Shown piece after piece: positions 3,104 through 24,630 of a DNA stretch of 43,065 nucleotides (positions are counted from its first letter, which is position 1; each line of letters starts with the position of its first letter). The translations under genes and the position numbers were made by a program. The stretch is taken from contig CANQHL010000003.1 of assembly GCA_947623775.1 (NCBI GenBank), forward strand, positions 1 through 43,065. Reading direction: 5' to 3'. Origin of the DNA: an uncultured Clostridia bacterium (GTDB lineage: Bacteria > Bacillota > Clostridia > Christensenellales > UBA1242). The notes below the pieces were generated by a model. That model saw only the letters and a program-made list of their open reading frames with translations. It had not been told where the DNA came from and searched no databases.

Positions 3104-3132
3104 AAAAAAATGGCCTTTTTAGGTCATTTTTT
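3104..3132. terminator. bidirectional terminator closing the paralog array
   Basis: AAAAAATGGCCT-TTTT-AGGTCATTTTTT overlapping the stop codon of the last array gene. Confidence 0.65.
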
Positions 3133-3708
3133 ATGTACAATCTCCTCATCATAATCTTCAACTCTTTTTATTCGTCGTTTTGATATTTTTTCTGCTTCAT
3201 CTAAGTCCAAAACAATTGGTTCTGGTTCTTTTGTTTTTAGTTTAGATGTTCGCCAATCTATGGTTGCCTTTCCAAGCAACTCTCTGCTTTTGTTTGGATA
3301 AAAGAACCAACAAACACCATTTGAAGCAATCATTGATGTTAACAACACGAGAGAGGACACAACATATTTTTGTTTTGTGTCTTTTAAAGACTTTATTTCA
3401 TCATCGAGCGATGTATCCAATTCAATTATGGACTTTGTAAAATCATCTGATGAAAGATAATCCTTTTTATCTTTATATTCTTCTTCACTTATCAAGCCCA
3501 TATTGTATGATTCATCAAGGCTTTTCATTTCTCTGCTTTGTGCCAAGGCAAAATCCGCATCTGTTTCTCTGTAAAGCTTATATATCCTTGCCCGTTCGCC
3601 GGCATAAGTGCTTGAAACACCAGCAAGCCCGCCAACACTAGCCCCAAACAGCAAGGCAGGCGCCATAGCACTCACAATTTTAATAATTGCTTTAAACTTA
3701 TTATTCAT
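3124..3708 (-). CDS. array paralog 10: two-TM protein, SHOCT-like loop, tail DYDEEIVHKK
   Basis: Start moved to MNNKFK (GGGG SD). Gly-rich TM1, GLISEEEYKDKKDYL, TM2, charged tail. Confidence 0.85.
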   Translation of the reverse strand: MNNKFKAIIKIVSAMAPALLFGASVGGLAGVSSTYAGERARIYKLYRETDADFALAQSREMKSLDESYNMGLISEEEYKDKKDYLSSDDFTKSIIELDTSLDDEIKSLKDTKQKYVVSSLVLLTSMIASNGVCWFFYPNKSRELLGKATIDWRTSKLKTKEPEPIVLDLDEAEKISKRRIKRVEDYDEEIVHKK

Positions 3709-3744
3709 ATTTATCCCCATACACATTTTATTGTTTGAAATCGA

Positions 3745-4296
3745 CTAATCTTGTACAATTTCTTCAGAATATAACTTTTCCTCTTGTTTACGCATTTTTT
3801 CTTCTTTACGTTTTTGTTTTTGCTGTCTTTCCTGATAATTTTCTCTCATATTTTCCCTTACACAGAAAAATTCTCTAAAACCTGTAGCATATGAAAACAG
3901 TGACATAAGACCTACACTGAACGGGATAAGGCTGTATAATTCACCCTTTGAACTCGCATCTCTTTTGGCAATATGAGTTTTCACTTCTTCATCTCGGATA
4001 ACATTTGATTTTAATGCTGATTGTATAAATTCTTTTGAATTTAAATGATCAGTTAAGTTTTCAAATTCCTCTTCACTTATCTCGCCATTATCAAATGCCT
4101 GCTTCGCTAACTGTAATTTACCCTCTTTTTCTGCTATAAAATCCTCAGTTTGTGCATATAAATCAACCGCCATGTCATTTTCTGAACTTTCCTTGACAGA
4201 CATACCTATAATAGTTCCAAGCCCGCCAAGTGCTGTCGCTGCAGGCAACAGTGCCAAGCCGAGTTTTAAAATAGCCGTTATTTTTTTTGAAATCAT
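3745..4296 (-). CDS. array paralog 9: two-TM protein, SHOCT-like loop, tail LYSEEIVQD
   Basis: TM1, FDNGEISEEEFENL, TM2, K/E/Q-rich tail. Confidence 0.88.
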   Translation of the reverse strand: MISKKITAILKLGLALLPAATALGGLGTIIGMSVKESSENDMAVDLYAQTEDFIAEKEGKLQLAKQAFDNGEISEEEFENLTDHLNSKEFIQSALKSNVIRDEEVKTHIAKRDASSKGELYSLIPFSVGLMSLFSYATGFREFFCVRENMRENYQERQQKQKRKEEKMRKQEEKLYSEEIVQD

Positions 4297-4300
4297 ATTT

Positions 4301-4864
4301 TCACTCCACTATCTCTTCGCTGTATAATTTTTCTTTTTTTGCACTTCTTTTGCGTTGTTTTTCTTCTTCTTTTCTTTTTCTTTCATTTTCATCTTTGAAA
4401 CTTTCTTGCATATTCTCCTTGACTTTCAACAGTTCAACAAACCGATCACTATTATATAGAATAAATGAGGATAGCAGTCCGCAGCCAAGTGGGATAAGAG
4501 GATATAAAATAGATGAATTAAGGTTGTTTACATTTTCGGTTAAACGATTTACATCCTCATTGTCGGTAAACGATGTTTTCATTACAGACGATGCAAATTC
4601 CGTGGAATTTAAATAATCTTTTCTTCTTTCATATTCGTCCTCATCTATTTCACCATTTGTAAACTTTTCTTCAAGTTCATCAAGTTTTATTTCTTGATAC
4701 ATTTTGAAATCTTCAGTTGTCGAAAATATCTTTACAGCTTTGCTCTCCTGAGTCAATGAGGATATGCCCATTCCGGCAAATGCCCCAACGCCAGCAAGCC
4801 CAACAATTGCAGGGGCAAGCCCTAATCCAAGTTTTAATATTGCTGTAATTTTCCTTTTTATCAT
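4301..4864 (-). CDS. array paralog 8: two-TM protein, SHOCT-like loop, tail LYSEEIVE
   Basis: TM1, FTNGEIDEDEYERRKDYL, TM2; visibly closest to paralog 9. Confidence 0.88.
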   Translation of the reverse strand: MIKRKITAILKLGLGLAPAIVGLAGVGAFAGMGISSLTQESKAVKIFSTTEDFKMYQEIKLDELEEKFTNGEIDEDEYERRKDYLNSTEFASSVMKTSFTDNEDVNRLTENVNNLNSSILYPLIPLGCGLLSSFILYNSDRFVELLKVKENMQESFKDENERKRKEEEKQRKRSAKKEKLYSEEIVE

Positions 4865-4912
4865 ATTTTTTATCCTTTTTTCTTAAAAAATGGCTATTTT
4901 TAACGTTTTATT

Positions 4913-5425
4913 TTATAATTTTCGTTTCTCTTCTTTTGCCTCTTTTGCTGCAATGAAATCTGTTTCAGCCGACCAAATTGTATTTCTAACAAAGTTTGTG
5001 CAAGAATAGACCATTGAAATGGCTGTTGCGGCAACTATAGGAAAGGCAACTCCGCAAATAATACCCGCCAATTCTGTTTGAGAATTTTCATCTATTTTGT
5101 CTATGTATTGCTGATATTCTTCGTTGTTTGCCTTTAAAATTGTGTCTATAAATTCGGTTGAATTATAATAACTCTTTTTTTCCAGATATTCATTGTTTGA
5201 AATCAATTTATTATCAACATCAGATTTTAACATTTCTAAATCAGAATTTATATATTCTTGTACTTCGGGCAATTGTCGTATCTCTTCATAAGTGTTATTT
5301 AAATCATCCGCCCCCTTACATCCAAGCCATATGAAAGAAGCTTCGACGCCAGCTGAAATCGCAAATGGCAAGCCGAGACTTATAAGTTTTAACCCCCCTA
5401 CAAATTTTTTCAAACTTCCTTTCAT
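4913..5425 (-). CDS. array paralog 7: two-TM protein lacking the YxEEI tail
   Basis: FIWLGC, DNKLISNNEYLEKK, AGIICG; ends early at EEKRKL. Confidence 0.85.
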   Translation of the reverse strand: MKGSLKKFVGGLKLISLGLPFAISAGVEASFIWLGCKGADDLNNTYEEIRQLPEVQEYINSDLEMLKSDVDNKLISNNEYLEKKSYYNSTEFIDTILKANNEEYQQYIDKIDENSQTELAGIICGVAFPIVAATAISMVYSCTNFVRNTIWSAETDFIAAKEAKEEKRKL

Positions 5426-5458
5426 TATTCCCCCAAATTTTTGAAAAATTGATTTTTT

Positions 5459-6007
5459 CTATCTTAAAATTTCTTCCTCGTAATTTTGTTCTTCTTTTTT
5501 CTTCTTTTTCATCTGTTTCTCTTCGCGTGCATCATCAAAATCTTCTTTTGCCGACTCCACTAAATTTTCTGCAAAATAAGTGCAAAAGTAGAGAATTCCA
5601 GAAGCGCCCGCACCAATTAAAGGATAAATTATACTGCAAGCAATCCCCGCATTCATTTCAGCGTCACCTTTATCTATTGCTTTAATATACTCACTATATT
5701 TTTCTGGCTCACTTTTCATCAACGAATAAAGAAATTCGTGCTGATCATATTCTTTTGATTGGTCCAAGTATTCTTTCTTTGTTATTTCTTTATTATCAAG
5801 ACGATTTTGTAAAATATCCAAATCCTCTTCAATCTGTTGGCTTATCTCGGTGTTTTGTCGTGCGTCTTTATAAGTGTTTTTTAATAATGTGTCCCCATCG
5901 CAGGCAAGCCAAATAAACGCTGCAGATCCACCAATTGTTAGTGCAACCGGAAGTGCAGTTGCCGCCATTTTTAATCCACCTTGAATATATTTCAATAAAC
6001 CTTTCAT
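5459..6007 (-). CDS. array paralog 6 (182 aa), tail NYEEEILR
   Basis: MKGLLKYIQGG subfamily; GGGGG SD. Confidence 0.9.
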   Translation of the reverse strand: MKGLLKYIQGGLKMAATALPVALTIGGSAAFIWLACDGDTLLKNTYKDARQNTEISQQIEEDLDILQNRLDNKEITKKEYLDQSKEYDQHEFLYSLMKSEPEKYSEYIKAIDKGDAEMNAGIACSIIYPLIGAGASGILYFCTYFAENLVESAKEDFDDAREEKQMKKKKKEEQNYEEEILR

Positions 6008-6040
6008 ATTTCCCCCAAATTACTGAAAAATTGAATTTTT

Positions 6041-6589
6041 CTATCTTATAATCTCTTCAGCATAATCTTTTTCTTCTTTTTTATTCTTTGTCAACATTTT
6101 ATCTAGGTGTGCATCTCTAAAATCTTCTTTTGCCGACTCCACTAAATTTTCTGCATAGTAAGTGCATAAGTAAAGGGCACTGGAAATTAGCCCGCCTATT
6201 ATAGGAGTTATTATACCGCAAATAATCCCTGCATTCTTTTCAGCGTTGCCTTCATCTATTGCTTTAATATACTCACCATATTTTTCTGGTTCACTTTTCA
6301 TCAAAGTATAAAGAAAATCGCGCTGATTATATTCTTCTGTTTGTTCCAAATATTCTTTCTTTGTTATTTCTTTATTATCAAGGCGGTTTTGTAAAATATC
6401 CAAATCCTCTTCAATCTGTTGACTAATCTCAGGGTTTTGTTGGACGTCCCTATAAGTGTCTTTTAATAATTTGTCCCCATTACAGCCAAGCCAAATAAAC
6501 GCTGCTGTTCCGCCAAGTGTTATTGCAACCGGCAATGCAACCGTTGCCATTTTTAAGCCACCTTGAATATATTTCAATAAACCTTTCAT
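6041..6589 (-). CDS. array paralog 5 (182 aa), tail DYAEEIIR
   Basis: MKGLLKYIQGG subfamily; 582-bp spacing from its neighbours. Confidence 0.9.
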   Translation of the reverse strand: MKGLLKYIQGGLKMATVALPVAITLGGTAAFIWLGCNGDKLLKDTYRDVQQNPEISQQIEEDLDILQNRLDNKEITKKEYLEQTEEYNQRDFLYTLMKSEPEKYGEYIKAIDEGNAEKNAGIICGIITPIIGGLISSALYLCTYYAENLVESAKEDFRDAHLDKMLTKNKKEEKDYAEEIIR

Positions 6590-6622
6590 ATTTCCCCCAA
6601 ATTATTGAATAATTTGATTTTT

Positions 6623-7171
6623 CTATCTTATAATCTCTTCGGCATAATCTTTTTCTTCTTTCTTCTTCCTTTTTGCCTCTTTCATTTCTTGTGCCGCATC
6701 AAAATCATCGCGAGCCGAGTCCGCTAATGCTTCAGCAAAATCAGTGCACAAATAAAGATATGCGGAAGTAAGTCCCCCGATTAAAGGAAAGATTATACCA
6801 CAAGCAATCCCCGCCATTAGTTCACTTTCGCCTTTATTTATGCTTTTAACATACTCCCCATATTTCTCTGGTTTGCTATTCATGAATTCATAAAGAAAAT
6901 CATCTTCTCTATATTCTTCGGTTCTTTCCAAATATTCCTGTGTGGTTATTTCCTTATTATCAAGGCGGGTTTGCAAAAGATCCAAATCATCTGAAATCAT
7001 TTGACTGATTTCAGTATCTTGTCTTGCCTCACTAAAAGCATTGCTTTTCATGGCATCACCGTTACAGCCAAGCCAAATAAACGTTGCCTCACCACCAAGC
7101 GTTATTGCAACGGGCAATGCGATTGTTATCATTTTTAAGCCACCTTGTATATATTTCAATAAACCTTTCAT
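6623..7171 (-). CDS. array paralog 4 (182 aa), tail DYAEEIIR
   Basis: MKGLLKYIQGG subfamily; GGAGG SD. Confidence 0.9.
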   Translation of the reverse strand: MKGLLKYIQGGLKMITIALPVAITLGGEATFIWLGCNGDAMKSNAFSEARQDTEISQMISDDLDLLQTRLDNKEITTQEYLERTEEYREDDFLYEFMNSKPEKYGEYVKSINKGESELMAGIACGIIFPLIGGLTSAYLYLCTDFAEALADSARDDFDAAQEMKEAKRKKKEEKDYAEEIIR

Positions 7172-7201
7172 ATTTCCTCCATATTGAATATGTGATTTTT
7201 T

Positions 7202-7750
7202 CTATCTTATAATTTCCTCGGCATAATCTTTTTCTTCTTTTTTAATCTTTTTCAACTTTTTCGCTTCTCGCGCCTCTTCAAAATCATCTCGAGCCGAGTC
7301 CATTAAAGATTCAGCCATATCTGTGAAAAGGTAAATTGCTGCAGAAGTAAATCCTCCCGCTATCGGAAATATTATACCGCAGGCAACCCCCGCAATAAAC
7401 TCAGATTCGCCTTTATCTATTCTTTTAACATAGTCTCCATATTTTTCCGGATGGCTTTTCATGTACCCATAAAGAAAATCATCTTTTTTATATTCTTCGG
7501 TTCTTTCCATAAATTCTTGTGTTGTTATTTCTTTATTATCTAATCGGTTTTGCAAAAGATCCAAATCTTCTGAAATCATTTGACTGATTTCAGGATTTTG
7601 TCTTGCCTCATTAAAAGCGTTGTCATACATATTGCTTCCGTTACAGCCAAGCCAAATAAACGCTGCTGTTCCGCCAAGTGTTATTGCAACCGGCAATGCA
7701 ACCGTTGCCATTTTTAAGCCACCTTGAATATATTTCAATAAACCTTTCAT
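7202..7750 (-). CDS. array paralog 3 (182 aa), tail DYAEEIIR
   Basis: MKGLLKYIQGG subfamily. Confidence 0.9.
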   Translation of the reverse strand: MKGLLKYIQGGLKMATVALPVAITLGGTAAFIWLGCNGSNMYDNAFNEARQNPEISQMISEDLDLLQNRLDNKEITTQEFMERTEEYKKDDFLYGYMKSHPEKYGDYVKRIDKGESEFIAGVACGIIFPIAGGFTSAAIYLFTDMAESLMDSARDDFEEAREAKKLKKIKKEEKDYAEEIIR

Positions 7751-7788
7751 ATTTCCCCCAAACTTAACTCTGTTTTAAAATTTTTTGT

Positions 7789-8352
7789 TTAGATTACTAT
7801 TTCCTCGGAATATTCATCTTCCTTTTTTGACTTTTTTATTTTGCTTTGCTCTTCACTATGCAATTTGGCATCTTCAAAAGAATCCCTTGCTATGTCGCAT
7901 AATATTCCCGCAAAAGTATCACCGTTAGATGGAGCATACATAAAGAAACTTGCAATAACTGAAAGCGTAAATGGAAGAATAGCCCATTCAGAACCATTTT
8001 CCATTTTTCTCGCTTTGTCTAGGTCGCCCTGAAATTCATCTTTTAGAATTGCATTTTCTTCCAACATATTATCCAAGAATTCATGCGAGGAATAATAAGC
8101 AGTGTTTTCATCATATTCTCGTCTTGTAATTTCTCCATCTTCAAAAAGTTGTGCATTACGTAAAATTTGCTCTTCAACTTCATCTTGCACAATCTCGCTT
8201 TGTTCAATTGCGTTATACGTTTTTTCTTTTAAATCGGAACCTGCCAAGCCTACTCCAATTCCACCGCCAAGACTACCAAAAAAAACTAATCCCGGCAAAA
8301 CCGTGCTTGCAATCAAAAGTGCACCTTTTATTCTCTTCAATAATCCGCTCAT
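7789..8352 (-). CDS. array paralog 2: two-TM protein, tail EYSEEIVI
   Basis: Gly-rich TM1, FEDGEITRREY, TM2, ARDSFEDA; GGAGGAG SD. Confidence 0.88.
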   Translation of the reverse strand: MSGLLKRIKGALLIASTVLPGLVFFGSLGGGIGVGLAGSDLKEKTYNAIEQSEIVQDEVEEQILRNAQLFEDGEITRREYDENTAYYSSHEFLDNMLEENAILKDEFQGDLDKARKMENGSEWAILPFTLSVIASFFMYAPSNGDTFAGILCDIARDSFEDAKLHSEEQSKIKKSKKEDEYSEEIVI

Positions 8353-8397
8353 AACTCCTCCCGTAATCCAAGCAATATATGTTATATTTATACATAT

Positions 8398-8425
8398 ATT
8401 ATATACTATTTTTGTAAAAAGTCAA
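8398..8425 (-). promoter_or_regulatory. sigmaA-like promoter for paralogs 2-10
   Basis: TTGACT-N16-TATAAT. Confidence 0.55.
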
Positions 8426-8451
8426 TAGCAAGAGGAAAAATATATTTACAC

Positions 8452-8484
8452 AAAAACCCCTGAAAGCATTAAACTTTCAGGGGT
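8452..8484 (-). terminator. terminator after array paralog 1
   Basis: ACCCCTGAAAG-N7-CTTTCAGGGGT with a T run on the minus strand. Confidence 0.8.
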
Positions 8485-8507
8485 CGCATCATAGATTTTA
8501 AACCAAA

Positions 8508-9044
8508 TTATCTCACAATTTCTTCATTATAATCATCGTCGCGTTTATATTTATCAAAATATTCTTCCCTTTGCTTGCGTAAACGTTTGAGCGTTCTTGT
8601 AGTGTTGACTACATTCATAATTGTAATGCCGACATTTGCAGCATTTATACCAATAACGCCTACAAGACGCATTATAGAAAAATCCTCATTGCGTTGAAGC
8701 ATAACTTGGAATTTCTCATTTCCAACATTTTCTTTTTCAATCGACGATTTTATAAAAGACCATTCATCTAAATCGTCCATTTGCTCATTTGCTTCGCTTG
8801 GAGTGATTTCATTATTATCAAGTTTTTCTTGAATTTCTTGAATTTTTTCTTCTTTAAATTGCTGATAAACTTCAGTTTCTTGATATTGGTTTATAATATC
8901 GTCTTTTATATTTCCAGCCTGCACCATTCCACCAACCCAGAGACCAAAAGATGCCAAAGCCAATGTTCCAAGCCCTGAAATTGTAGCAACGAGTGCAAGA
9001 TTTCTTCGTAAACTATCTTTAACCACACCATTATTTTTTGCCAT
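8508..9044 (-). CDS. array paralog 1 (most divergent, own transcription unit), tail DYNEEIVR
   Basis: TM1, LDNNEITPSEA, TM2, charged tail. Confidence 0.85.
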   Translation of the reverse strand: MAKNNGVVKDSLRRNLALVATISGLGTLALASFGLWVGGMVQAGNIKDDIINQYQETEVYQQFKEEKIQEIQEKLDNNEITPSEANEQMDDLDEWSFIKSSIEKENVGNEKFQVMLQRNEDFSIMRLVGVIGINAANVGITIMNVVNTTRTLKRLRKQREEYFDKYKRDDDYNEEIVR

Positions 9045-9061
9045 TGTCTACCTCTGTAAAT

Positions 9062-9127
9062 ATTATATAGCATTTTCAAAAAAAGTCAATATTTACTTTG
9101 CAAAAAATTAACAATTAAGATTATAAT
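9062..9127. promoter_or_regulatory. back-to-back sigmaA-like promoters
   Basis: Minus: TTGACT(9084-9089)-N16-TATAAT(9062-9067). Plus: TTGCAA(9098-9103)-N18-TATAAT(9122-9127). Confidence 0.55.
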
Positions 9128-9132
9128 CCATG

Positions 9133-9345
9133 CAGACTGAATAAAGAAAGGCAAAACTATATCTCACCATTTGCGTTTTTCGCTTGGTGTCAAAGTTTGC
9201 CTTTCGCCCTTTTCCCTCTCATCATCGCAATCTTACTTTCTCACATAAAAGACAAGTAATCACCTTATATGTCTATTGTTCATTTTAAGTAACACAGAAA
9301 GTAAAATTTTTTAAATTTACGACCACTAAGTTTCCATTTAGTCTG
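9133..9345 (+). ncRNA. candidate structured ncRNA (~213 nt)
   Basis: 10-bp closing stem (9133-9142/9336-9345) enclosing two hairpins; begins 5 nt after a TATAAT box. Confidence 0.45.
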
Positions 9346-9362
9346 AAATAGGTGTTAAAAAT

Positions 9363-9542
9363 TTATTTTTGCTCATCTTTTTTATTAGATTTTTTTGCTT
9401 TTTTCTCAATTTTTTCAACTTCTTGCTTCACTGCCTTTTCGCCTTTATCAACTGCTTGTTTGGCACATTCTGAATATTTGTAAAGAAGTGCACCTGTCAC
9501 AAGCCCCATACTGAAGCCAAGCAACATTAATACATCTTTCAT
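9363..9542 (-). CDS. small membrane-anchored protein (YtxH-like architecture)
   Basis: Start moved to MKDVLMLLG (GGAGG SD); hydrophobic G-x3-G-x3-G N-terminus, K/E-rich helix. Confidence 0.7.
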   Translation of the reverse strand: MKDVLMLLGFSMGLVTGALLYKYSECAKQAVDKGEKAVKQEVEKIEKKAKKSNKKDEQK

Positions 9543-9725
9543 AACTTCCTCCTCGATTATAGTTTGTGCCATATTTAATAATTTATACAGTAATGAATAA
9601 AAACATAAATCATCTTAAATTTGTGTAAAAACTCTTAAAATTGCAAAAAAACAGGCTTTTTTATTAAATTTTAAGTGATTTTCATTAAATTATCACAAAT
9701 TTTGCTTGTTAGACGCTGAAAATCC

Positions 9726-9761
9726 AAAAAAAATATCCTAAACTTTTTAGGATATTTTTTT
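9726..9761. terminator. terminator after iscU
   Basis: AAAAAAATATCCTAAA-CTT-TTTAGGATATTTTTTT. Confidence 0.75.
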
Positions 9762-10148
9762 CTATTTTTTTGTTTCCTTTTCTTTTCTCTTGTAATAATC
9801 TTCTATTGCTGCTCTTATTGCCTCAACTGCAAGGTTTGCAGTGTAATCTCTGCTTTCTGGAACAGGTCCCATTTCTTCAAGAATTTGATAATGATTTGTT
9901 CTTAAAGCGGCTTCCAATGAACGCCCCTCAATCAATGAACAAGCAACATCAAGTGCAACAATTGTGCAAACTCCGCCATATGCTTTGAATTTTGCTTCAG
10001 TTATCACATTATCATCATTGACAGAAATATATAACCTTACTTGATCACCGCACTCTTCATTTTCACATCTTCCTGTGCCGTTTGCACCTCTAAGGCCACC
10101 TGCATATTTCGGACTAACAAATCTTTCTATAATTTTTTCACTATACAT
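9762..10148 (-). CDS. iscU: Fe-S cluster scaffold, IscU/NifU-N family
   Basis: MYSEKIIERF..P..AG, ECGD, FKAYGG; follows a cysteine desulfurase. Confidence 0.85.
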   Translation of the reverse strand: MYSEKIIERFVSPKYAGGLRGANGTGRCENEECGDQVRLYISVNDDNVITEAKFKAYGGVCTIVALDVACSLIEGRSLEAALRTNHYQILEEMGPVPESRDYTANLAVEAIRAAIEDYYKRKEKETKK

Positions 10149-10150
10149 AA

Positions 10151-11326
10151 TTACTTCCTCCCTGCTTTGGTAAGTGCTGAAATCGATCTCAATTTAGCAA
10201 CCGACTTTTCAAGTACATCAACGGTGTAATCTATATCCTCTTTGGTTAAATTTTTACCAAATGAAAATCTTATAGAACTGTTTGCAATTTCATCTTCAAG
10301 TCCCATAGCCTTTAATACATGTGACTGAGTGAGTGAATTTGATGTGCATGCACTGCCTGCCGAAACTGCAATCCCCTCAAGGTCAAGAAGCATAAGCAAA
10401 GATTCTTTATCAACCATTTCAAAGCAAAGATTTAAAATTGTGTTTACTTTTTGCATTGGATGGCCATTTACTTCAACAAATTCAATTCTATCATGAACGC
10501 ATTTTAAGAAATAATCTCTTACGCTTTTCATCTTTTGTGCATTTACTGCCATATCTCTTACTGCAACTTCAACGGCTTTGCCAAAACCTGCAACTGCTGG
10601 CACGTCAACTGTTCCGCCTCTTTTTCCACGTTCTGCACTTCCGCCATAGATGAGATTTTCTATTCTTATACCCTCTTTAAGATATAAGCAACCAACCCCT
10701 TTTGGTCCGTAAATTTTGTGACCTGTAATTGTCATAGCGTCAATTTCCATGTCTTTAACATCAATTTTGAGATTTCCTATTGCTTGGCTTGCGTCTGTGT
10801 GGAAGATTATGCCATAATCATGAGCAATCTTTGCAATTGTTTTGATGTTTTGAATTGTTCCAACTTCGTTGTTTACAGCCATAATGGAAATTAATGTTGT
10901 TTCATTTTTTATCTCATGCAAAAGTTGACCTAAATCAACAAGCCCATGTTTGTCAACAGGAAGATATGTAACCTCATATCCCTCTTCTTCCAATACGGCA
11001 CAAGCATCAAGAATTGACTTGTGTTCTATTTGGCTTACTATAATGTGTTTTCCTTTGCTTGAATAAGCGTGAGCAATTCCTCTTATTGCCCAGTTGTTTG
11101 CTTCCGTTCCACCGGAAGTGAAATAAATTTCATTTGCTTTTTCCGCATTGATTGCATTTTTGATGCGGTCTCTTGCTCTATCCACAACACCGGCAGCCAT
11201 TCTGCCAAAACTGTGTAAGGTGTTGGCATTGCCATAAATGGCGTTGAAGCAAGGCATCATTTCATTTAATACTTCATTTGATACATAGGTTGTTGAAGCA
11301 TAATCGAAATAAACTTTTTTAGACAT
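10151..11326 (-). CDS. iscS: cysteine desulfurase
   Basis: YFDYASTT, FTSGGTEANN, GHKIYGPKG (PLP Lys), SAGSAC. Confidence 0.93.
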   Translation of the reverse strand: MSKKVYFDYASTTYVSNEVLNEMMPCFNAIYGNANTLHSFGRMAAGVVDRARDRIKNAINAEKANEIYFTSGGTEANNWAIRGIAHAYSSKGKHIIVSQIEHKSILDACAVLEEEGYEVTYLPVDKHGLVDLGQLLHEIKNETTLISIMAVNNEVGTIQNIKTIAKIAHDYGIIFHTDASQAIGNLKIDVKDMEIDAMTITGHKIYGPKGVGCLYLKEGIRIENLIYGGSAERGKRGGTVDVPAVAGFGKAVEVAVRDMAVNAQKMKSVRDYFLKCVHDRIEFVEVNGHPMQKVNTILNLCFEMVDKESLLMLLDLEGIAVSAGSACTSNSLTQSHVLKAMGLEDEIANSSIRFSFGKNLTKEDIDYTVDVLEKSVAKLRSISALTKAGRK

Positions 11327-11414
11327 TTTACACCCCTTTACATAATTAATATTTTAACACGAACCACTTATAAAGTCAATAGCAATTAAAATTAAAAATA
11401 AAAAAAGTTAAAAT

Positions 11415-11732
11415 TTAGTCTTTTTGTGCTAAATTTTCAAGTATTTCAATAATTTCATCTTCCTGCCATACGCCAATGTGGCTTTCTTTTCGCTCTCCAT
11501 CTTTGTAAATCATAATGGTCGGGATTGATTTTATATTGAATTCTTCTGTAAGTTTTGTGCTTTGATCTACGTCAACTTTTATTATTTTTACTTTGTTGTC
11601 GGTCTGCTCCTCAATTTGTTCGAGAACTTGCTCCATTATGTGACAAGGTCCGCACCATGTTGCAAAAAAATCAACGACAACAAGTCCTTGCGCAACCTCA
11701 TCATTAAATTCATTTTCATTTATTACTTTCAT
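11415..11732 (-). CDS. trxA: thioredoxin
   Basis: DFFATWCGPC, SIPT. Confidence 0.93.
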   Translation of the reverse strand: MKVINENEFNDEVAQGLVVVDFFATWCGPCHIMEQVLEQIEEQTDNKVKIIKVDVDQSTKLTEEFNIKSIPTIMIYKDGERKESHIGVWQEDEIIEILENLAQKD

Positions 11733-12406: not shown

Positions 12407-12413
12407 TTTTGCC

Positions 12414-16366: not shown

Positions 16367-16375
16367 TTGCTTCTC

Positions 16376-17476: not shown

Positions 17477-17488
17477 TTTTCCTCCATT

Positions 17489-19021
17489 TTACTGAAAATA
17501 TTTTCTATCAAGTGTCCTATATGAAATTGCCTCGGCAATGTGCTTTGCTTGAATATTCTCGCAGCCGTCGAGGTCGGCAATTGTTCTTGCAACTTTCAAA
17601 ATCCTATCATGAGCCCTTGCACTTAATTTCAATTTCTCAAATGCGTTTCTCAACAACTCCTCTCCCTGCTTGTCAAGTTTGCAAAATTTCTTGGTCTGAG
17701 CAACGTTCATTTTTGAATTGCAAAAGGTTTTTGAATTTTCAAATCTTTTATTTTGAATTTCCCTTGCCCTGTCAACTCTCTTTTTTATCTCCTGCGACAA
17801 CTCTTCTTTTGTGTCACTGTTCAACTGATCATATGTGACATTTTCAACTTCTATATGTATATCTATTCTATCCATAATCGGACCGGACAATTTTGAAATA
17901 TATTTGGCTATTTGACTTGCCGAGCACTTGCATTCCCTGTCACTTGAGCCATAATATCCGCATGGACATGGATTCATGCTTGCGATTAAAGTGAAATTTG
18001 CAGGATAAGTGATTGTTGAATTTGAACGGGCAACAGTTATAACCCCATCTTCAAGAGGTTGTCTTAATGTTTCAATTGTATGTCTTGTATATTCTGGAAA
18101 TTCATCTAAAAACAAAACTCCATTATCTGCAAGTGAAATCTCCCCCGGTTTGCTGTTTGACCCTCCGCCGGTCAAGGAAATTGTTGACGCTGTGTGATGT
18201 GGACTTCTAAATGGCCTTTTTGAAACTATTCCCTCATTTTGGTCAAGTTCTCCCGCTATTGAATGAATTTTGGTCACTTCAAGCGCCTCTTCAAAAGTCA
18301 TATCAGGCAAAATCGATGGGAAGCACTTCGCAAGCATACTTTTTCCGCTTCCAGGCGGACCTATCATTATAACATTATGCCCACCGGCTGCCGCAATTTC
18401 AAGTGCGCGTTTTGCCATCTTTTGCCCTTTTACATAGCAGAAATCAAGTCCTTGTGCCACAGCATTTTTGCTTTCTTCATATTTTCTTGTTTCAAGGGGA
18501 TTTATCTTTTCTTCCCCTTTCAAAAAGTTGACTGTTTGAATAAGGTTGCTTACGCAATAAACATTTATATTTTCAATAAAACTTGCCTCTTTTTCATTAT
18601 CCGCTGGAATAATAAAATTTTTGAACCCCATCTGGCGGGCTGATATTAAAAGTGGCAATATGCCTTTCACTCTTTTTACATTTCCATCAAAGGATAATTC
18701 ACCTACAAAAACATAGTCTTCAATATTGTTTAATGAAATCTCCTTGTCGCAGCTTAAAATTGCAATCGCTATGGCAAGGTCGTATAAGGCACCAACTTTT
18801 TTAATGTCGGCTGGGGCGAGGTTTATTGAAATTTTTTTAATAGGATATGGAAGTGCTGAATTTCTTATTGCATTTTTAACTCTTTCTTTTGCTTCTTTTA
18901 TTGCTGTGTCGGCAAGCCCAACTATTTCAAAACCGGGCAATCCGTTGCTAACGTCAACTTCCACATCAAGTGGATAGCCCTCAATTCCAACCAAACCAAA
19001 ACTTTTTACCTTTGAATACAT
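17489..19021 (-). CDS. comM: YifB/ComM Mg-chelatase-like AAA+ ATPase
   Basis: Start moved to MYSKVKS (GGGGG SD); GPPGSGKS, RPFRSPHH, LFLDE, MNPCPCG, ARTIADL. Confidence 0.92.
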   Translation of the reverse strand: MYSKVKSFGLVGIEGYPLDVEVDVSNGLPGFEIVGLADTAIKEAKERVKNAIRNSALPYPIKKISINLAPADIKKVGALYDLAIAIAILSCDKEISLNNIEDYVFVGELSFDGNVKRVKGILPLLISARQMGFKNFIIPADNEKEASFIENINVYCVSNLIQTVNFLKGEEKINPLETRKYEESKNAVAQGLDFCYVKGQKMAKRALEIAAAGGHNVIMIGPPGSGKSMLAKCFPSILPDMTFEEALEVTKIHSIAGELDQNEGIVSKRPFRSPHHTASTISLTGGGSNSKPGEISLADNGVLFLDEFPEYTRHTIETLRQPLEDGVITVARSNSTITYPANFTLIASMNPCPCGYYGSSDRECKCSASQIAKYISKLSGPIMDRIDIHIEVENVTYDQLNSDTKEELSQEIKKRVDRAREIQNKRFENSKTFCNSKMNVAQTKKFCKLDKQGEELLRNAFEKLKLSARAHDRILKVARTIADLDGCENIQAKHIAEAISYRTLDRKYFQ

Positions 19022-19123
19022 AATTCCCCCAAACCTTTTCAATATATGTTAGCATAAATTCTCGAAATTTCAAAACAATTACAAAATTTTTTCAAATAAA
19101 AACATTTATGATTTTTCGACAAC

Positions 19124-19154
19124 AAAAAAGATTGAAAGATTTTTCTTTCAATCT
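19124..19154 (-). terminator. terminator after the DegV gene
   Basis: AAGATTGAAAGA-TTTT-TCTTTCAATCTT with a T run on the minus strand. Confidence 0.7.
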
Positions 19155-19253
19155 TAAATATCTTTTTATATTTCTCTCAAATAATGGTTGCCATATTTTT
19201 CTAATATAAAATTAAAAAATTTACTCTCAATCTAATTTTATAATGTTCTCACC

Positions 19254-20114
19254 TTATTTCAAAAATCCGAACACTGCAATTGTTTTCGGTCCACAGTTGC
19301 AACCCATTGTATAATCAATATAGTCAACTGTTATTTCCTTGTTTTTCGTATTCTCTTTTAAAAATTTCGCCAATTGCTCGGCCTCTTCCTTTTGGCCTGT
19401 GTGACCTATATACATTTTGCCGGGACTTGTTAAGTCGGCATTTTCCAAAATGTAATTTTCTATTGTGCTTATTGCCTTTTTTCTTCCTATTGATTTTATA
19501 TGCAATTTCAATTCGCCTTTTTCATTTGCAGTGATCACCGGCACAATCTTCAACATTGTTCCCACGCTTGCGGCAAATTTATTTATCCTCCCCGATTTAC
19601 GTAAAAATTTCAAATCTCCAGGGGCAAAAATCGCAAAACTTTTAATACCATTTTTATCAAGTGCCTTATGAATTTCCTCTGCGGATTTTCCCTCGTCTGC
19701 CATTTGTTTTGCCGCTTCAACACTAAACGAAATTGCATAACTTCCCGTCAAACTGTCTGCAATCCAAACCCTTTTACCATATTTTTTATTTAATTCTTCT
19801 GCTACAATTTTTGCATTGTTGTTTGTGCAGCTCATTCCGCCTGATAGACCTATATAAAAAACATCAAACCCAAGTTTTAAATATTTTTCAAATGTTTCTT
19901 CAAAGGTGTAGTTGTTTATGCAACTTGTCGAACAGCTTTCGGACTCTTCGAGTATTTTATAAAATTCTTCGGGATCAGTTATGGGATAATTTAAACTGCT
20001 TCGAGTTTCACCATTTACTGTAATGTCCATCGACAAAAGTTCAATATCAAGTTCTTTAAGTCTTTCGGGAGTCAAACTGCAACAACCATCTGTGATAACC
20101 TTAACTTTATTCAT
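19254..20114 (-). CDS. DegV/FakB fatty-acid-binding family protein
   Basis: Start MNKVKVITD (AGGAG SD); STS, LSGGMS, IADS, LRKSGRI, GP. Confidence 0.9.
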   Translation of the reverse strand: MNKVKVITDGCCSLTPERLKELDIELLSMDITVNGETRSSLNYPITDPEEFYKILEESESCSTSCINNYTFEETFEKYLKLGFDVFYIGLSGGMSCTNNNAKIVAEELNKKYGKRVWIADSLTGSYAISFSVEAAKQMADEGKSAEEIHKALDKNGIKSFAIFAPGDLKFLRKSGRINKFAASVGTMLKIVPVITANEKGELKLHIKSIGRKKAISTIENYILENADLTSPGKMYIGHTGQKEEAEQLAKFLKENTKNKEITVDYIDYTMGCNCGPKTIAVFGFLK

Positions 20115-20296
20115 ATTTTCTCCTTTTTGAAGTTTGCCGCTTCGCAAATAATTTTATGTCGAAAAAAACCTACAAACAAGGGAATTGACAAAACACATTC
20201 TAAAAAAGTGATTTTAAATTCGCTTAAACGTAGAATTTGTTATGTTTTTGCCTCAATCACTTTGACTTTTTGTGTTTTTCGTGATAATATATACCT

Positions 20297-20989
20297 ATGG
20301 AAGAAAAAGAAATACTCGCAAGGAATTTAATTCGATACAGAAAAAATGCTGGGCTCAGTCAAATTGAACTTGCAAAAAAATTAAATTACAGCAATAAAAA
20401 TATAAGCAAATGGGAAAATGGGGAAACCATGCCCAATGCTTTTGTTTTGCAAAAAATAGCAAATATATATGGAATTACCATTGAAGATCTTCTTTCTGAA
20501 GCTCCTGCTCAACTAAGCGAGCCAAATCCCGAAAAAGAAATCAAAAACACAAGCAAAAGAAAATTTATTTTTCGCCTTACAATGCTCCTGCTTGCCAATG
20601 CGATTATGTACGCAATCGGAACTCTTCTTATTTACATATTAAAATTGGTGGGCATTTCAAATTTCAACTTTCTTTTGATTTATCTTTATCTCTCCCCTGC
20701 AACTTGTCTTAGCATAACAATTTATGTTCGTATTCTTTACAACATCGTTGATTTGATTTCCTTGACCTTTTTCGGCTTGCTTTTCTGTTTGTGTTTCTAC
20801 TTTTCTTTTATACATGCCCGACATATGGCATTCATATTTGTTCTGTATGGAGTCTATGAAATTGTGCAAGTCTGCATCGCACTTTTGATAAATATAAAAC
20901 TGAAAAATAATAAATTGCAAAATAATAAAAATCAAAATGAAAATGAGCAAAATAATATAGAAGAAAACACGCCAAATGAAAACATTTAA
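20297..20989 (+). CDS. XRE-family HTH regulator with C-terminal membrane domain
   Basis: LSQIELAKKL..ISKWENG..P followed by about four TM helices. Confidence 0.88.
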   Translation: MEEKEILARNLIRYRKNAGLSQIELAKKLNYSNKNISKWENGETMPNAFVLQKIANIYGITIEDLLSEAPAQLSEPNPEKEIKNTSKRKFIFRLTMLLLANAIMYAIGTLLIYILKLVGISNFNFLLIYLYLSPATCLSITIYVRILYNIVDLISLTFFGLLFCLCFYFSFIHARHMAFIFVLYGVYEIVQVCIALLINIKLKNNKLQNNKNQNENEQNNIEENTPNENI

Positions 20990-21010
20990 TTCGCCCATTT
21001 TAAGCCACCA

Positions 21011-21048
21011 AAAAAAGCATATCAAAATTTATTCGATATGCTTTTTTT
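21011..21048. terminator. bidirectional terminator
   Basis: AAAAAAGCATATC-N11-GATATGCTTTTTT between convergent genes. Confidence 0.75.
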
Positions 21049-21118
21049 ATTTTCATTTTAAACAATTATTTTCATTTAATTTTATTGCCTTTTTAAGCAA
21101 TTATATTTATTTTATTTC

Positions 21119-21200
21119 AAGCAATTTGCTTTTCTATATTTATTACATTCAAAGCAATTTGCTTTTCTATATTTATTACATTCAAAACAATTTGCTTTTT
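21119..21200. repeat. 33-bp tandem repeat, about 2.5 copies
   Basis: AAGCAATTTGCTTTTCTATATTTATTACATTCA at 21119 and 21152, partial third copy at 21185. Confidence 0.85.
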
Positions 21201-21208
21201 TATTTAAT

Positions 21209-21898
21209 TTAAATTTCCATTCCCAGCAATTTGCTTCTTATCTTTCTAATTTCAACTTTTTGCTCCGGAGTTATACGAGTTGATTCACATGCCTTTTGCA
21301 AGGTTCGATTTCTTACAATAAATCTTTCAAGTTTTTGAGTGAAATCAATCATATAATCATAGTCCAAAACAAGTGCATCGGCATAGCACCAAGCGAGTGC
21401 CGTCTCAACATAATAATTTGTGTTTTTCACATTATCATTTATCAAATTTACTGTTTCTCTAACATTTTTCTTCAGATAGAACTTCTTAAACCAAACAATG
21501 GCAAACCTTATATAAAAAGGTCTGTTGCTGCGAAGCAAATTAACAAAAAATTCCTTCTGGCTTTCCATCCTTTGAAGTCGATTAACTATTATGTCGCATG
21601 TTGCCCAATTGTCAATATATGGAAGCAACTTGCTTAATTCTTGTGCTTTCTCTTTTGGAGACATTCTGCTGTATGCAATAGTCATTCCGGCAAGCATTAT
21701 TTCCTCATGATAATCAAGTGGAAAATCATTTACCTTTGGTTTTTTCACTGCCAATTTTTTAGCAAACTTAACAAGGTCATCATTCATTAACCCCTTTATC
21801 TCATAACTCGTTGATACAAGCCCCTCATCATAAGTGGCCTTTTCCTTTGAACAATGAGTGTTTATAAATTCTTCTACTTCGTTTTTAAGTTTTATCAT
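21209..21898 (-). CDS. DNA alkylation repair protein (AlkD-like HEAT fold)
   Basis: IDNWATCD, YYVETALAW. Confidence 0.75.
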   Translation of the reverse strand: MIKLKNEVEEFINTHCSKEKATYDEGLVSTSYEIKGLMNDDLVKFAKKLAVKKPKVNDFPLDYHEEIMLAGMTIAYSRMSPKEKAQELSKLLPYIDNWATCDIIVNRLQRMESQKEFFVNLLRSNRPFYIRFAIVWFKKFYLKKNVRETVNLINDNVKNTNYYVETALAWCYADALVLDYDYMIDFTQKLERFIVRNRTLQKACESTRITPEQKVEIRKIRSKLLGMEI

Positions 21899-22004
21899 AG
21901 CATTCTCCTAGTTTCTATAATACAATAAAAATTTTCATTTGTCAACACTTGAGCGAAAATTGTCGAAATATAATCATATAAAACAAAAAAGCCCCCTAAC
22001 GGAC

Positions 22005-22355
22005 TTATTTGTTTTCTGCAGATTTGATTTTAGCGGCTTTTCCAGTAAGAGCACGAACATAATATAATTTTGCTCTTCTTGGTTTTCCTTTTCTTACAAC
22101 ATCTACACTTGCAACAAGTGGAGAGTGGCAAGGGAAAGTTCTCTCAACGCCAACACCATTTGATATTTTTCTAACAGTGAAAGTTTCTCTAACGCCTCCG
22201 TTTTTTCTGGCAATAACAACGCCCTCAAAACCTTGTATTCTTTCTTTGTCTCCTTCTTTAATTCGTACGCCTACTCTTACAGTGTCGCCAATATTAAATT
22301 CAGGGAAAGATTCTTTCATGTTTTCTTTTTCAATTTGGTCAACTAAATTTGCCAT
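22005..22355 (-). CDS. rplS: 50S ribosomal protein L19
   Basis: [38 protein letters not shown]. Confidence 0.98.
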
Positions 22356-22392
22356 TTCTTTACTCCTTTTAATAATTTTTATTTTTTAAAGA

Positions 22393-22575
22393 TTAACCTC
22401 TTTTTCTTGCTCTCTTTCTGGCTGCTTCTCTTTTCTTTTTCTTTGCGACACTTGGTTTATCGTAAGCCTCTTTTCTTCTTATGTCACCGATTATACCATC
22501 TTTTTGGCATTTTCTTTTAAATCTTTTTAAAGCACTTTCAAGAGTTTCGTTTTCACCAACTTTAACAGTAGTCAA
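22393..22575 (-). CDS. rpsU: 30S ribosomal protein S21
   Basis: Likely TTG start ([10 protein letters not shown]); [19 protein letters not shown]. Confidence 0.96.
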
Positions 22576-22670
22576 TCTTCTCACCACCTTCTAATTTATA
22601 ACTTTGTTTTGCAACATGAGTATATTATACACAATAATTTTATTTTGTCAAGGAATTTTACATTTTAGTT

Positions 22671-23939
22671 TTAAATTTTTATTGCTTTAACCCCCTCTTT
22701 ATAAGGGCTTTCAAGCTTTACATTGATTATCTTCCCGACCAAGTTTTCATTTGAGGAAATGTAACATCTTATGTAATTTCGTGTGTACCCGGCATACTCA
22801 CCTTGCACCAACTCTTCAACCAAAACTTCTCCCATATGATTCAATGCGATGAATTCTGATTTTAATTTTTGATTTAACTCTTCAAAAATTTCAAGTCTTT
22901 CTTGTTTTATCTCGGGATTTAAATCCTTGTAAAGTTTTGCTGCGGCTGTTCCATCTCTTTGTGAATATTTGAATATATGCAACTGGCTAAACTTCATTTC
23001 CTTTACAAACTCAAAACTCTCATTGAAATTTTCTTCACTTTCAGACGGAAACCCTACTATTACATCAGTGGTTATTCCTGCTAATGGGAAGTATTTTCTT
23101 ATAAGTTTCACTGATGAAGCAAATTCCTCTTTTGTGTAGTGTCTGTTCATTTTCTTTAAAACATCATTGCAACCGCTTTGCAAAGACAAGTGAAAGTGTG
23201 GACAAAAATTTTTAAGTTTGCTTAGTCCCTCAATAAAGTTTTCTTCAATAAGCCCCTCTTCCATCGAACTTAATCTTAACCTTTTTCCGAAACCGTCCAG
23301 TGCTTTTAAAAGCGTCAACAATCCCCTTTCGCCATCAATTTTATAATCTGTCACATCAATCCCCGTGATTACAATTTCCTTTATCGAATCATCTAAATTT
23401 TTTACTTCATCAACAATTGACTGCAAACTTCGCGACCTGCTTCTTCCTCTCAAATATGGAATGATGCAATAACTGCAAAAATTATTGCACCCATCTTGTA
23501 TTTTTATATATGCTCTTGTCCGCGATTGGCAAGCAAAAGGCTCTTCTTGATATTGCAAAGGAAGTTCCTGCAAATCCTCCACTTTTTGCGGTGAAGATTG
23601 AGTTTTCAGTGAATTTAATAAATAATCTATAATTTTTTCTTTGCCGCTTGTACCCATCACAACTTCAACATCTTTTTCAATAAATTGTTTTGCGTTGTTT
23701 TGGCTGGCACACCCGCATACAAAAATTTTTGAACTTCTGTTGAATTTTTTGCATCTTGCAATCATTTGCCTTGATTTTTTCTCCGCTTCCTGTGTCACCG
23801 CACATGTGTTTATAATATAAACATCAGCAGTTTCCAATTTGTCTGTTGTTTTAAAACCAAGCGAATTAAGTTTTGTTATGAGTGCATCACTTTCATATTT
23901 GTTCACCTTGCACCCGAGCGTCATAACCGATACTTTCAT
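22671..23939 (-). CDS. mtaB: tRNA t6A37 methylthiotransferase
   Basis: Start moved to MKVSVMTLGCKVNKYES; INTCAVT, radical-SAM CNNFCSYC, HLSLQSG; upstream of rpsU as usual. Confidence 0.92.
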   Translation of the reverse strand: MKVSVMTLGCKVNKYESDALITKLNSLGFKTTDKLETADVYIINTCAVTQEAEKKSRQMIARCKKFNRSSKIFVCGCASQNNAKQFIEKDVEVVMGTSGKEKIIDYLLNSLKTQSSPQKVEDLQELPLQYQEEPFACQSRTRAYIKIQDGCNNFCSYCIIPYLRGRSRSRSLQSIVDEVKNLDDSIKEIVITGIDVTDYKIDGERGLLTLLKALDGFGKRLRLSSMEEGLIEENFIEGLSKLKNFCPHFHLSLQSGCNDVLKKMNRHYTKEEFASSVKLIRKYFPLAGITTDVIVGFPSESEENFNESFEFVKEMKFSQLHIFKYSQRDGTAAAKLYKDLNPEIKQERLEIFEELNQKLKSEFIALNHMGEVLVEELVQGEYAGYTRNYIRCYISSNENLVGKIINVKLESPYKEGVKAIKI

Positions 23940-24085
23940 AGAGATAATTTTATCAGATTGTTTTTCAAAAATCAACCTATTTTTGTTTTTATCTTTCAAG
24001 CGAATACATTTTTACATATAAATAAATTTAAAATAAAAATGATAAATAAATATAAAATGAAATAAAAGGATAAAATATTTTTATA

Positions 24086-24114
24086 TTGACTTTATAAAAT
24101 TAATAAAGTATACT
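24086..24114 (+). promoter_or_regulatory. sigmaA promoter
   Basis: TTGACT-N17-TATACT, then AAGGAG SD. Confidence 0.8.
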
Positions 24115-24132
24115 TAAAGTAAGGAGATAACT

Positions 24133-24630
24133 ATGAAAGAAATTTATATCAATGGCAAAAAAATTAAGCCGGTTACTTTTAATATGAATATAGATAATAA
24201 AATTTTTACAATCACCGATTGCGGGCATGAAATCATTATAAACAACGAATCCTATTATAGAGGAAGCAGATCAAGTTCATATCATAATGGTGATAACATT
24301 GAAATAAAAGATTTTAAAGTTTTTATCAATCGCTATCCCGTACCGCTAGGAGATGGTATATTTAATCTTGTTGGCAACGGATATGAAAATCATATAAAAA
24401 TTGACGGCAAGGAGTTCACCGTCAAAGATTGCGGAAGAGAATATAAGGTTAATGATAAAATTATATTCAAAGACATTCCATGCAGCATTTGCGGATGGTT
24501 TGGATGTATAGAATGTGTTGACGGCATTCTGGTAATCAATGATGAACCTATATCATTTAATGGTCGAATTAGTGACTATTCTACTGATGACGACGATGAA
24601 TATTCTGAAGAAATTTGCCAAGACGAATAG
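24133..24630 (+). CDS. hypothetical beta-rich protein with internal duplication and EYSEEIC tail
   Basis: Strong promoter and SD; FTITDCGHEIIIN / FTVKDCGREYKVN repeat; no TM segment or signal peptide. Confidence 0.85.
   Translation: MKEIYINGKKIKPVTFNMNIDNKIFTITDCGHEIIINNESYYRGSRSSSYHNGDNIEIKDFKVFINRYPVPLGDGIFNLVGNGYENHIKIDGKEFTVKDCGREYKVNDKIIFKDIPCSICGWFGCIECVDGILVINDEPISFNGRISDYSTDDDDEYSEEICQDE

Follow-up and report, generated by a model that had tools for sequence, protein, structure and literature searches.

The window analysed here, a 43,065-nucleotide (nt) stretch of an uncultured Clostridia bacterium (contig CANQHL010000003.1, assembly GCA_947623775.1), contains an array of ten tandem minus-strand open reading frames (ORFs) at 3124-9044, 3′ of a conserved block comprising comM-dprA-topA-hslV-hslU-thiF-trx-nifS-nifU. 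The array encodes paralogs of a predicted two-transmembrane (2-TM) family, and nine of the ten proteins end in the tail [DE/L]-Y-x-E-E-I-[VIL] plus one to four residues (herein YxEE). A tail of the same kind ends a soluble protein encoded at 24133-24630. We consider Y-x-E-E-[IVL] to be probably one allele of an address tag, a short linear motif at the C terminus that is portable and lineage-specific. The shared tail is confirmed as a real and non-random observation, and independent replication in other species supports its reading as a portable tag. The genes concerned are listed below, with lengths in amino acids (aa).

3124..3726, minus strand: 2-TM copy 1, 200 aa; tail YDEEIVHKK at 3127-3153; family profile match, two hydrophobic windows
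3745..4296, minus strand: 2-TM copy 2, 183 aa; tail YSEEIVQD at 3748-3771; alignment, profile, codon table
4301..4864, minus strand: 2-TM copy 3, 187 aa; tail YSEEIVE at 4304-4324; alignment, profile, codon table
4913..5425, minus strand: 2-TM copy 4, 170 aa; no tail, ends ...KEEKRKL; 38-43% identity to copies 5-8
5459..6007, minus strand: 2-TM copy 5, 182 aa; tail YEEEILR at 5462-5482; alignment, profile, codon table
6041..6589, minus strand: 2-TM copy 6, 182 aa; tail YAEEIIR at 6044-6064; source of the AlphaFold2 model
6623..7171, minus strand: 2-TM copy 7, 182 aa; tail YAEEIIR at 6626-6646; alignment, codon table
7202..7750, minus strand: 2-TM copy 8, 182 aa; tail YAEEIIR at 7205-7225; alignment, codon table
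7789..8352, minus strand: 2-TM copy 9, 187 aa; tail YSEEIVI at 7792-7812; alignment, codon table
8508..9044, minus strand: 2-TM copy 10, 178 aa, most divergent; tail YNEEIVR at 8511-8531; alignment, codon table
24133..24630, plus strand: soluble β-rich protein, 165 aa; tail YSEEICQDE at 24601-24627; no family match

An initial annotation had given the nine endings of the array proteins exactly as we find them: DYDEEIVHKK, LYSEEIVQD, LYSEEIVE, NYEEEILR, DYAEEIIR (three times, in the copies starting at 6041, 6623 and 7202), EYSEEIVI and DYNEEIVR. Five copies are only 14-28% identical to copy 1, and Y176, E178, E179 and I180 are among the few columns of the ten-copy alignment conserved at 90% or more. 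The synonymous codon variation claimed at the outset is borne out by a codon table (Y, TAT/TAC; E, GAA/GAG; I, ATT/ATA; V, GTA/GTG/GTT), and the 3′ flanks are unrelated; together, varied codons and unrelated flanks show that the shared endings cannot be due solely to recent gene conversion or to an element acting at the DNA level. Copy 4 does lack the tail, as had been noted. A tail lost there through a nonsense mutation was considered and rejected, as read-through beyond the stop codon shows no tail relic. Between the array and nifU lies a 69-aa ORF (9363-9572, minus strand) with one hydrophobic segment, a Lys-rich C terminus and no family match.

The protein encoded at 24133-24630 ends in EYSEEICQDE (DDDDEYSEEICQDE). 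The description of this protein as non-homologous to the array and TM-less holds: BLASTP finds no similarity to the array beyond the eight-residue tail, and the sole hydrophobic window, a Cys-rich stretch (CSICGWFGCIECVDGILV; Kyte-Doolittle 1.74), is not read as a TM helix because it contains E and D. A 5.8-billion-protein index holds no homolog besides the protein itself, and an AlphaFold2 model of the protein alone is unusable (predicted local distance difference test [pLDDT] 31). Among the other genomes of the same genus (herein G021, G028, G029, G069, G085, G095, G105, G135, G137 and G178), G095 encodes an ortholog, split across two contig ends, with 48-52% body identity; it ends ...YYSEEICDD, so that the tail is conserved, a point on which the earlier claim had been made to depend. 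Sixteen nt 3′ of the soluble carrier in the window, a predicted lipoprotein of 751 aa with four divergent InlB B-repeat (Flg_new_2) domains is encoded at 24646-26901 (plus strand); in G095 its homolog sits upstream of the soluble-carrier ortholog instead.

Chance occurrence of the tail was assessed in the source genome of the window (G000; 1.31 Mb, 126 contigs, 78% complete; its contigs are denoted C1, C2, C3 and so on) on the 1201 non-family ORFs of at least 70 aa, against shuffled termini. Y.EEI[VILC] falls in the last 10 residues of one of them, the 24133-24630 protein (0.02-0.04 expected; shuffle P ~0.04), and in the last 22 residues of two (0.06-0.14 expected; shuffle P[≥2] = 0.008); internally, the pattern occurs once in ~330,000 residues of G000. 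The second carrier, encoded at C1:15314-15943, is thus a further unrelated protein of the kind that the tag interpretation called for. It ends ...LYDEEICTDEENYDDDVIEIE (...SLYDEEICTDEENYDDDVIEIE), its neighbors in an array end ...Y[LI]D[LI]E, and its G095 ortholog ends ...LYYEEICSDEENYDDD..EIE (...LYYEEICSDEENYDDDNKEIE). One of the two soluble YxEE carriers is a weak homolog of the YLDLE-tailed proteins described below.

A family profile finds 23 members in G000 (ten on C3, six on C7, four on C2 and three on C55), 17 of which match Y.E[ES][IV].{0,5}$. The profile-matched copies on C55 end ...IELVDNNEVQI, ...INLVNDEDEEAKI and, for C55:2506, ...ISEAAEKE; the adjacent ORF C55:3030-3506, which has no profile match, ends ...KIELVNDDTEI. 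Three of the four ORFs at C55:1445-3506 end in a third tail type (all but C55:2506), which suggests more than one tag class for the family within one genome. In an alignment of 35 members from three species, restricted by choice to tail-bearing members, Y, E and E are the sole invariant columns. All tail classes share a juxtamembrane S-A-x-x-D-[FW] motif, which is followed by a charged or proline-rich linker of varying length and then by the tail.

Hydropathy analysis gives two TM windows in nine of the ten array copies and one in the remaining copy. The N-terminal stub carries one to four K/R and zero to one D/E, and the 85-96-residue loop is net acidic (8-14 K/R versus 18-23 D/E). Applying the positive-inside rule to these hydropathy and charge data, we infer that the tail and both termini face the cytoplasm. 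The AlphaFold2 model of copy 6, built from 35 sequences, is all-helical (pLDDT 88.7; H2-50, H53-71, H77-87, H90-99, H101-141 and the long C-terminal H143-181), and Foldseek returns no PDB fold match to it at E<0.2 (TM-score ≤0.37). Pfam yields sub-threshold SHOCT/GvpG matches alone for the array proteins, to a motif in the loop, and a word-indexed homolog search with the array profile gave six matches, nearly all of them the window's own proteins.

A second and larger set of shared endings is present in the same genome. The pattern [YF][LIV]D[LIV]E$ ends 22 of the 1201 non-family G000 ORFs against 0.03 expected, and a wider pattern ends 24. Its carriers (herein YLDLE) are encoded at C1:8425-19795 and C2:39363-51251 (loci L036, L082 and L083) and also on C7, C18, C54, C91, C96, C116 and C118; an M18 aminopeptidase ending FLEME was set aside as a chance match. 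Compared without their final 12 residues, the carriers form about ten BLAST-unrelated groups, namely five clusters (of 10, 5, 4, 2 and 2) and five singletons. One cluster has BspA-type leucine-rich repeats, one protein is a β-helix and the remainder have no Pfam match; the ESM Atlas gave no usable match for a YLDLE protein. None of the carriers has an N-terminal signal peptide, and two have a doubtful hydrophobic window. Tail codons again vary synonymously, and the tag is kept in all 14 database homologs of the largest cluster. YLDLE and 2-TM genes are interleaved on C2 of G000, as are soluble and 2-TM genes on G105:C10. As a DNA pattern in 121 genomes of the genus, Y-[LIV]-D-[LIV]-E-stop is multi-copy in three (20 in G000, 17 in G095 and 14 in G105; control patterns, 0 there) and present at most once in every other.

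Related genomes carry the YxEE tail or a different tail on the same scaffold. In G095 and G105, [DE]-Y-x-E-E-[IVL] is kept on most of the 2-TM members found. The syntenic array of G029, likewise placed after nifS-nifU, encodes members ending ...LGSLDDFLxxx and one ending ...ELGDEYYRN, and a separate soluble array in that genome ends SLDDFFKE, DIDEYWLY, PLDEFFLD and SIDDDYYIE. In G069 and G135, the tail EEELPSIDDEYYRD is found on 2-TM proteins and on at least seven unrelated soluble proteins alike: there are 14 and 20 instances, respectively, of [DE]-x-Y-Y-x-[DN]-stop (controls, 0), and the extended form EEELP[SD]I[DE][DE]xYY[KR][DN] is present on five (G069) and nine (G135) 2-TM members and on soluble TM-less proteins. 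The soluble carriers of these two genomes form eight BLAST groups, six of which are ortholog pairs of both genomes; none is similar to any G000 protein. The portability first claimed for the window is thus replicated, with other tails, in G029 and in G069/G135. Members in G137 end ESLDEDYL, ESIDENYL or GDLDEKFL. A profile search of 1.84 billion protein representatives gave 544 matches (140 at E≤1e-10); among the best 150 representatives, 87 fall in seven recurrent tail classes (YxEE, 41; LPDIxDxYY, 15; LEI[DK][IY], 12; LGSLDDFL, 9; PEVNLE, 4; LDEDxL, 4; EMGM, 2) and 63 in none. PEVNLE-stop, a class known from metagenome representatives, is found in 0 of 154 genus genomes.

Two groups of ATPases are candidate receptors, both by co-occurrence within one clade. 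One is an AAA_5/MoxR-like multi-copy family, a 657-aa member of which abuts the array on C2 of G000 (C2:37251-39224; other copies are at C45:6380-8470, C62:5609-7747 and C31:10961-12004). Strong matches (E<1e-100) occur in eight of the 154 genus genomes (five in G000, five in G105, six in G095, eight in G135, seven in G069, four in G029, nine in G137 and one in G085); seven of the eight are the seven genomes with conserved tails, the exception being G085. The paralogs have the ATPase half in common (residues ~290-640), and the N-terminal half is variable. One copy lies on the contig of the G095 YIDLE array (C29), another lies 6 kb from the array on G105:C10, and one sits beside the cluster of the second candidate. 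The Pfam match of the family is weak (AAA_5, 4e-5); there is no PDB sequence match, and the nearest Atlas clusters are AAA_5/bpMoxR-like, partly viral and of no known function.

The second candidate, at C31:3699-10518 (locus L051), is a second FtsK/SpoIIIE ATPase of 956 aa that is EssC/EccC-like and has no TM window. It matches TIGR03928 (1.1e-26), EccCa (6.7e-24) and FtsK (7e-7), with a best score of 92.9 against a cut-off of 778 bits, and its best PDB sequence matches are EccC5 and Thermomonospora curvata EccC (1.6e-17). One clear P-loop domain (395-650) also matches SspH (1.3e-21) and mad8. Five small helical proteins with weak WXG100 matches, one of them a conserved 97-aa protein, and two Zn-ribbon-TPR/Sel1 proteins are encoded 3′ of the ATPase. 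Full-length homologs are present in two of 120 other genus genomes (G105, 83% identity; G095, 29%), such that G000, G105 and G095 are the three genomes with this ATPase and with both YxEE and YLDLE tails. The module is also found in other Bacillota metagenome-assembled genomes (L118-L121). A predicted complex of ATPase residues 50-956 with the tail of copy 6 (residues 137-182) scored 0.00, which is evidence neither way. In G095, the contig of the EssC-like module also carries an integrase-like gene. ORFs of 205 aa with a partial FtsK_SpoIIIE match occur at G095:C11:13649-13918 (1.7e-8) and G105:C6:76848-77111 (4.9e-6); the latter lies ~6 kb from 2-TM genes, and no such ORF was found in G000.

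In the address-tag reading, the membrane carrier is a fast-evolving, all-helical protein with a basic N-terminal stub, a first TM helix, an acidic helical loop of ~85-95 residues that is probably extracellular, a second TM helix, the conserved S-A-x-x-D-[FW] motif, a charged low-complexity linker and the tag. Unrelated signal-less soluble proteins, encoded in arrays and often interleaved with 2-TM genes, end either in this tag or in a sister tag found in that genome. We propose that the tag would dock its carriers onto a common cytoplasmic partner, possibly an AAA+ or EssC-like ATPase, with which it co-evolves; a single machine would thereby receive the soluble clients as well as the membrane carriers, whether to export them, to recruit them to the membrane or to remodel them in an ATP-dependent manner. 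The proposal of the initial annotation is upheld in part, namely as a transferable C-terminal signal marking a client set for machinery encoded elsewhere; the mechanisms that it had listed (secretion, TPR docking, Tyr phosphorylation and proteolysis) are candidates. It had missed that the family carries at least seven tail classes, that G000 also has a larger sister tag (YLDLE) and that there are 23 members rather than 10. A broader form of the reading, which we hold to be rather unlikely, is a tag-directed sorting or export pathway of reduced-genome gut Clostridia, in which species-specific zip codes mark dozens of leaderless effector-like proteins and the diversifying 2-TM family provides soluble ATPases (the AAA_5 family and the TM-less EssC-like protein) with a membrane conduit or anchor; tag and receptor would co-diversify in the manner of secretion-system specificity modules.

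Several observations weigh against the address-tag reading. Six of the 23 G000 members are tail-less (copy 4, C7:21456, C2:40733 and all three on C55). In G028, G021, G178 and G085, a recognizable tail is missing from most members, and no tail is shared among the family members of these four genomes; the tag is therefore dispensable for the scaffold. The tail classes were defined after inspection of the sequences, and the 2-TM topology is derived solely from hydropathy and charge counts. The tag-bearing genomes are mutual nearest relatives by TopA (identity to G000: G105 and G095, 85%; G069, G135 and G029, 83%; G137, 88%, from a partial match), and every co-occurrence may hence reflect a single ancestral event. 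All links to a machine are co-occurrences inside this one clade. In G069 (97% complete) the AAA_5 copies are not adjacent to the arrays and the tag system is present with no second FtsK/EssC-type ATPase found, the Sel1/TPR proteins occur in G000 and G105 only and were not found in G095, and five other genomes with the EssC-like module have neither the 2-TM family nor multi-copy YLDLE-stop (0 in four, 2 in one).

Other explanations differ in what would read the tail. It is possible, if doubtful, that the tails are signals like those of a type VII secretion system (T7SS), read by the EssC/EccC-like ATPase on C31; YLDLE would mark leaderless substrates and YxEE would dock the 2-TM proteins, which would in turn supply the membrane part absent from the TM-less ATPase. 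The absence of a TM window from that protein fits such an arrangement, as do its best scores against EssC/EccC models, its closest PDB sequences, the WXG100-like genes that follow it and the confinement of its genus homologs to the genomes with both tails. Y-L-D-L-E agrees with YxxxD/E spacing, and T7SS ATPases bind the C-terminal tails of substrates (PMC10765036). Y-x-E-E-I does not fit that spacing, however, and the clients are neither WXG100- nor LXG-like; the model scores are far under curated cut-offs, and the match to SspH is to a protein of a defense system. G069 is tagged without such an ATPase, other genomes with the module are without tails and the 2-TM family, and the G095 ATPase has diverged to 29% identity despite the same tails. 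Another account makes the tail a recognition tag for the multi-copy AAA_5/MoxR-like ATPases, whose association with tags holds over all tail classes seen in the genus, with four to nine strong matches in each tag-bearing genome. Here the variable N-terminal domains would read the tail, and the carriers would then be remodeled, extracted, assembled or degraded by an AAA+ ring; the shared ATPase half and dissimilar N-terminal halves of the paralogs, and the copies that abut or share a contig with arrays in G000, G095 and G105 or sit beside the EssC-like cluster, are consistent with that role. The case is nonetheless purely correlative and drawn from one clade, G085 has a copy without a clear shared tail, the G069 copies are apart from the arrays, and database matches are weak or uninformative as to function; we regard this account as unlikely as well.

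A receptor within the 2-TM family itself, for example the S-A-x-x-D-F helix, is quite improbable; tails would then link subunits head to tail and recruit soluble proteins. The shared tails of 2-TM and soluble proteins in G029, G069 and G135 and the interleaved genes on G000:C2 and G105:C10 suit this arrangement, and G069 does so because no extra gene is needed. Most soluble clients in G000 end in YLDLE rather than in the 2-TM tail, however, and S-A-x-x-D-F is the same over all tail classes and therefore does not co-vary with the tail. Finally, the endings might have no portable function and be a family trait inherited by descent, with coincidence accounting for the rest, or else arise at gene ends through gene conversion or a DNA-level element. 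YxEE carriers are indeed mostly paralogs, three with identical DYAEEIIR, and only one unrelated protein in the window has the tail in its last 10 residues (P ~0.04). Retention of the tail at 14-28% body identity, synonymous codons next to unrelated 3′ flanks, its conservation in orthologs of both soluble carriers, and different tails on unrelated proteins in two other species pairs with zero control matches all oppose this explanation, which is very improbable and already contradicted by the codon, ortholog and G069/G135 data.

In this 1.3-Mb genome, one or the other of two conserved peptides closes roughly 40 of ~1,330 ORFs, and in sister species the same scaffold carries different peptides instead, which points to a co-evolving peptide-receptor code. 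To our knowledge, Gram-positive bacteria rarely have portable codes for sorting or docking at the C terminus, apart from the signals of sortases and T7SS. Natural controls exist in the paralogs without a tail, in the exchange of tails at a syntenic locus and in the soluble and membrane carriers of one tail, and the tag code is therefore directly testable. The identity of the receptor could reveal how leaderless proteins are exported or organized in uncultured small-genome gut Clostridia and would also yield a set of orthogonal peptide tags.

Among known systems, T7SS signals include the C-terminal tail of EsxB/CFP-10, which is bound by the D3 domain of EccC, and the YxxxD/E and FxxxD export-arm motifs (PMC10765036); they resemble the tails described here in being short C-terminal motifs on leaderless proteins with lineage-varying specificity. 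Further likenesses are the YxxxE spacing of YLDLE and the fact that G000, G105 and G095 carry genes for an EssC/EccC-like ATPase and for WXG100-like proteins. The differences are as follows. Each of the 17 tailed G000 members has I, V or L at position +4 of Y-x-E-E-[IVL]; the carriers are not helix-turn-helix WXG100/LXG proteins (no WXG100 or LXG Pfam match in the array proteins, the 24133-24630 protein or 20 YLDLE proteins), and one carrier class is an integral membrane protein modeled as a helical bundle. Full EssC comprises FHA, TM and three ATPase domains, whereas the ATPase here is without TM or FHA segments and below the family cut-off; the comparison of machinery is based on this ATPase, as EsaA, EssA, EssB and other T7SSb core genes were not searched for.

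PTS1-PEX5 and the EEVD-TPR pairing of Hsp70/Hsp90 place a portable, extreme C-terminal peptide on unrelated clients and read it with a repeat-protein receptor, a likeness to which the two Zn-ribbon-TPR/Sel1 proteins beside the EssC-like ATPase add, although these are encoded in G000 and G105 only. Unlike EEVD, YxEE tails have zero to four residues after the hydrophobic position (IV$, IS$, IVE$, IVQD$, IVHKK$), and this variable distance argues that YxEE is not anchored by the carboxylate; YLDLE$ and YY[KR][DN]$, unlike YxEE, are at a fixed C-terminal position. Encapsulin cargo-loading peptides are also C-terminal, follow a flexible linker and occur on diverse soluble proteins, and the G029 tail contains LGSL, but the tag here is present on membrane proteins too. 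Cargo loading was rejected: the Linocin_M18 shell (PF04454) was found in 0 of 5 genomes (G000, G029, G069, G105 and G135), and three control genomes matched. Src-type SH2 domains bind pYEEI, from which Y-x-E-E-I differs in spacing. SHOCT (PF09851) shares the loop motif GEI[ST]xxEYxxxKxxL (best match 4.5e-5, 23.5 bits), below its 27-bit cut-off (four of eight array proteins scanned); that motif lies in the loop, not at the C terminus, and is unrelated to the tail. Mimicry of FtsZ or SSB tails was set aside, the C terminus of G000 FtsZ being unlike the tags and no DD[LI]PF tail being found. PHROGs gave one weak match among 10 proteins scanned (phrog_2834, unknown function, E 0.0025) and none for the other nine; PADLOC gave no match for eight tail proteins and matched the EssC-like ATPase domain alone (SspH, mad8). 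Among the papers listed by literature searches on the motif strings and on T7SS tails, none was found to describe such tails.

The pentapeptide NWETF of chemoreceptors tethers CheR and CheB, and the C-terminal tail of SSB serves as a hub. An acidic-aromatic peptide that ends the flexible cytoplasmic linker of a helical two-TM protein and recruits soluble enzymes is close to what is proposed here, although the present family is only ~180 aa with no signaling domain, and its tails are lineage-variable and also borne by soluble proteins. No family match was found, and we place the tail system among C-terminal targeting and docking peptides.

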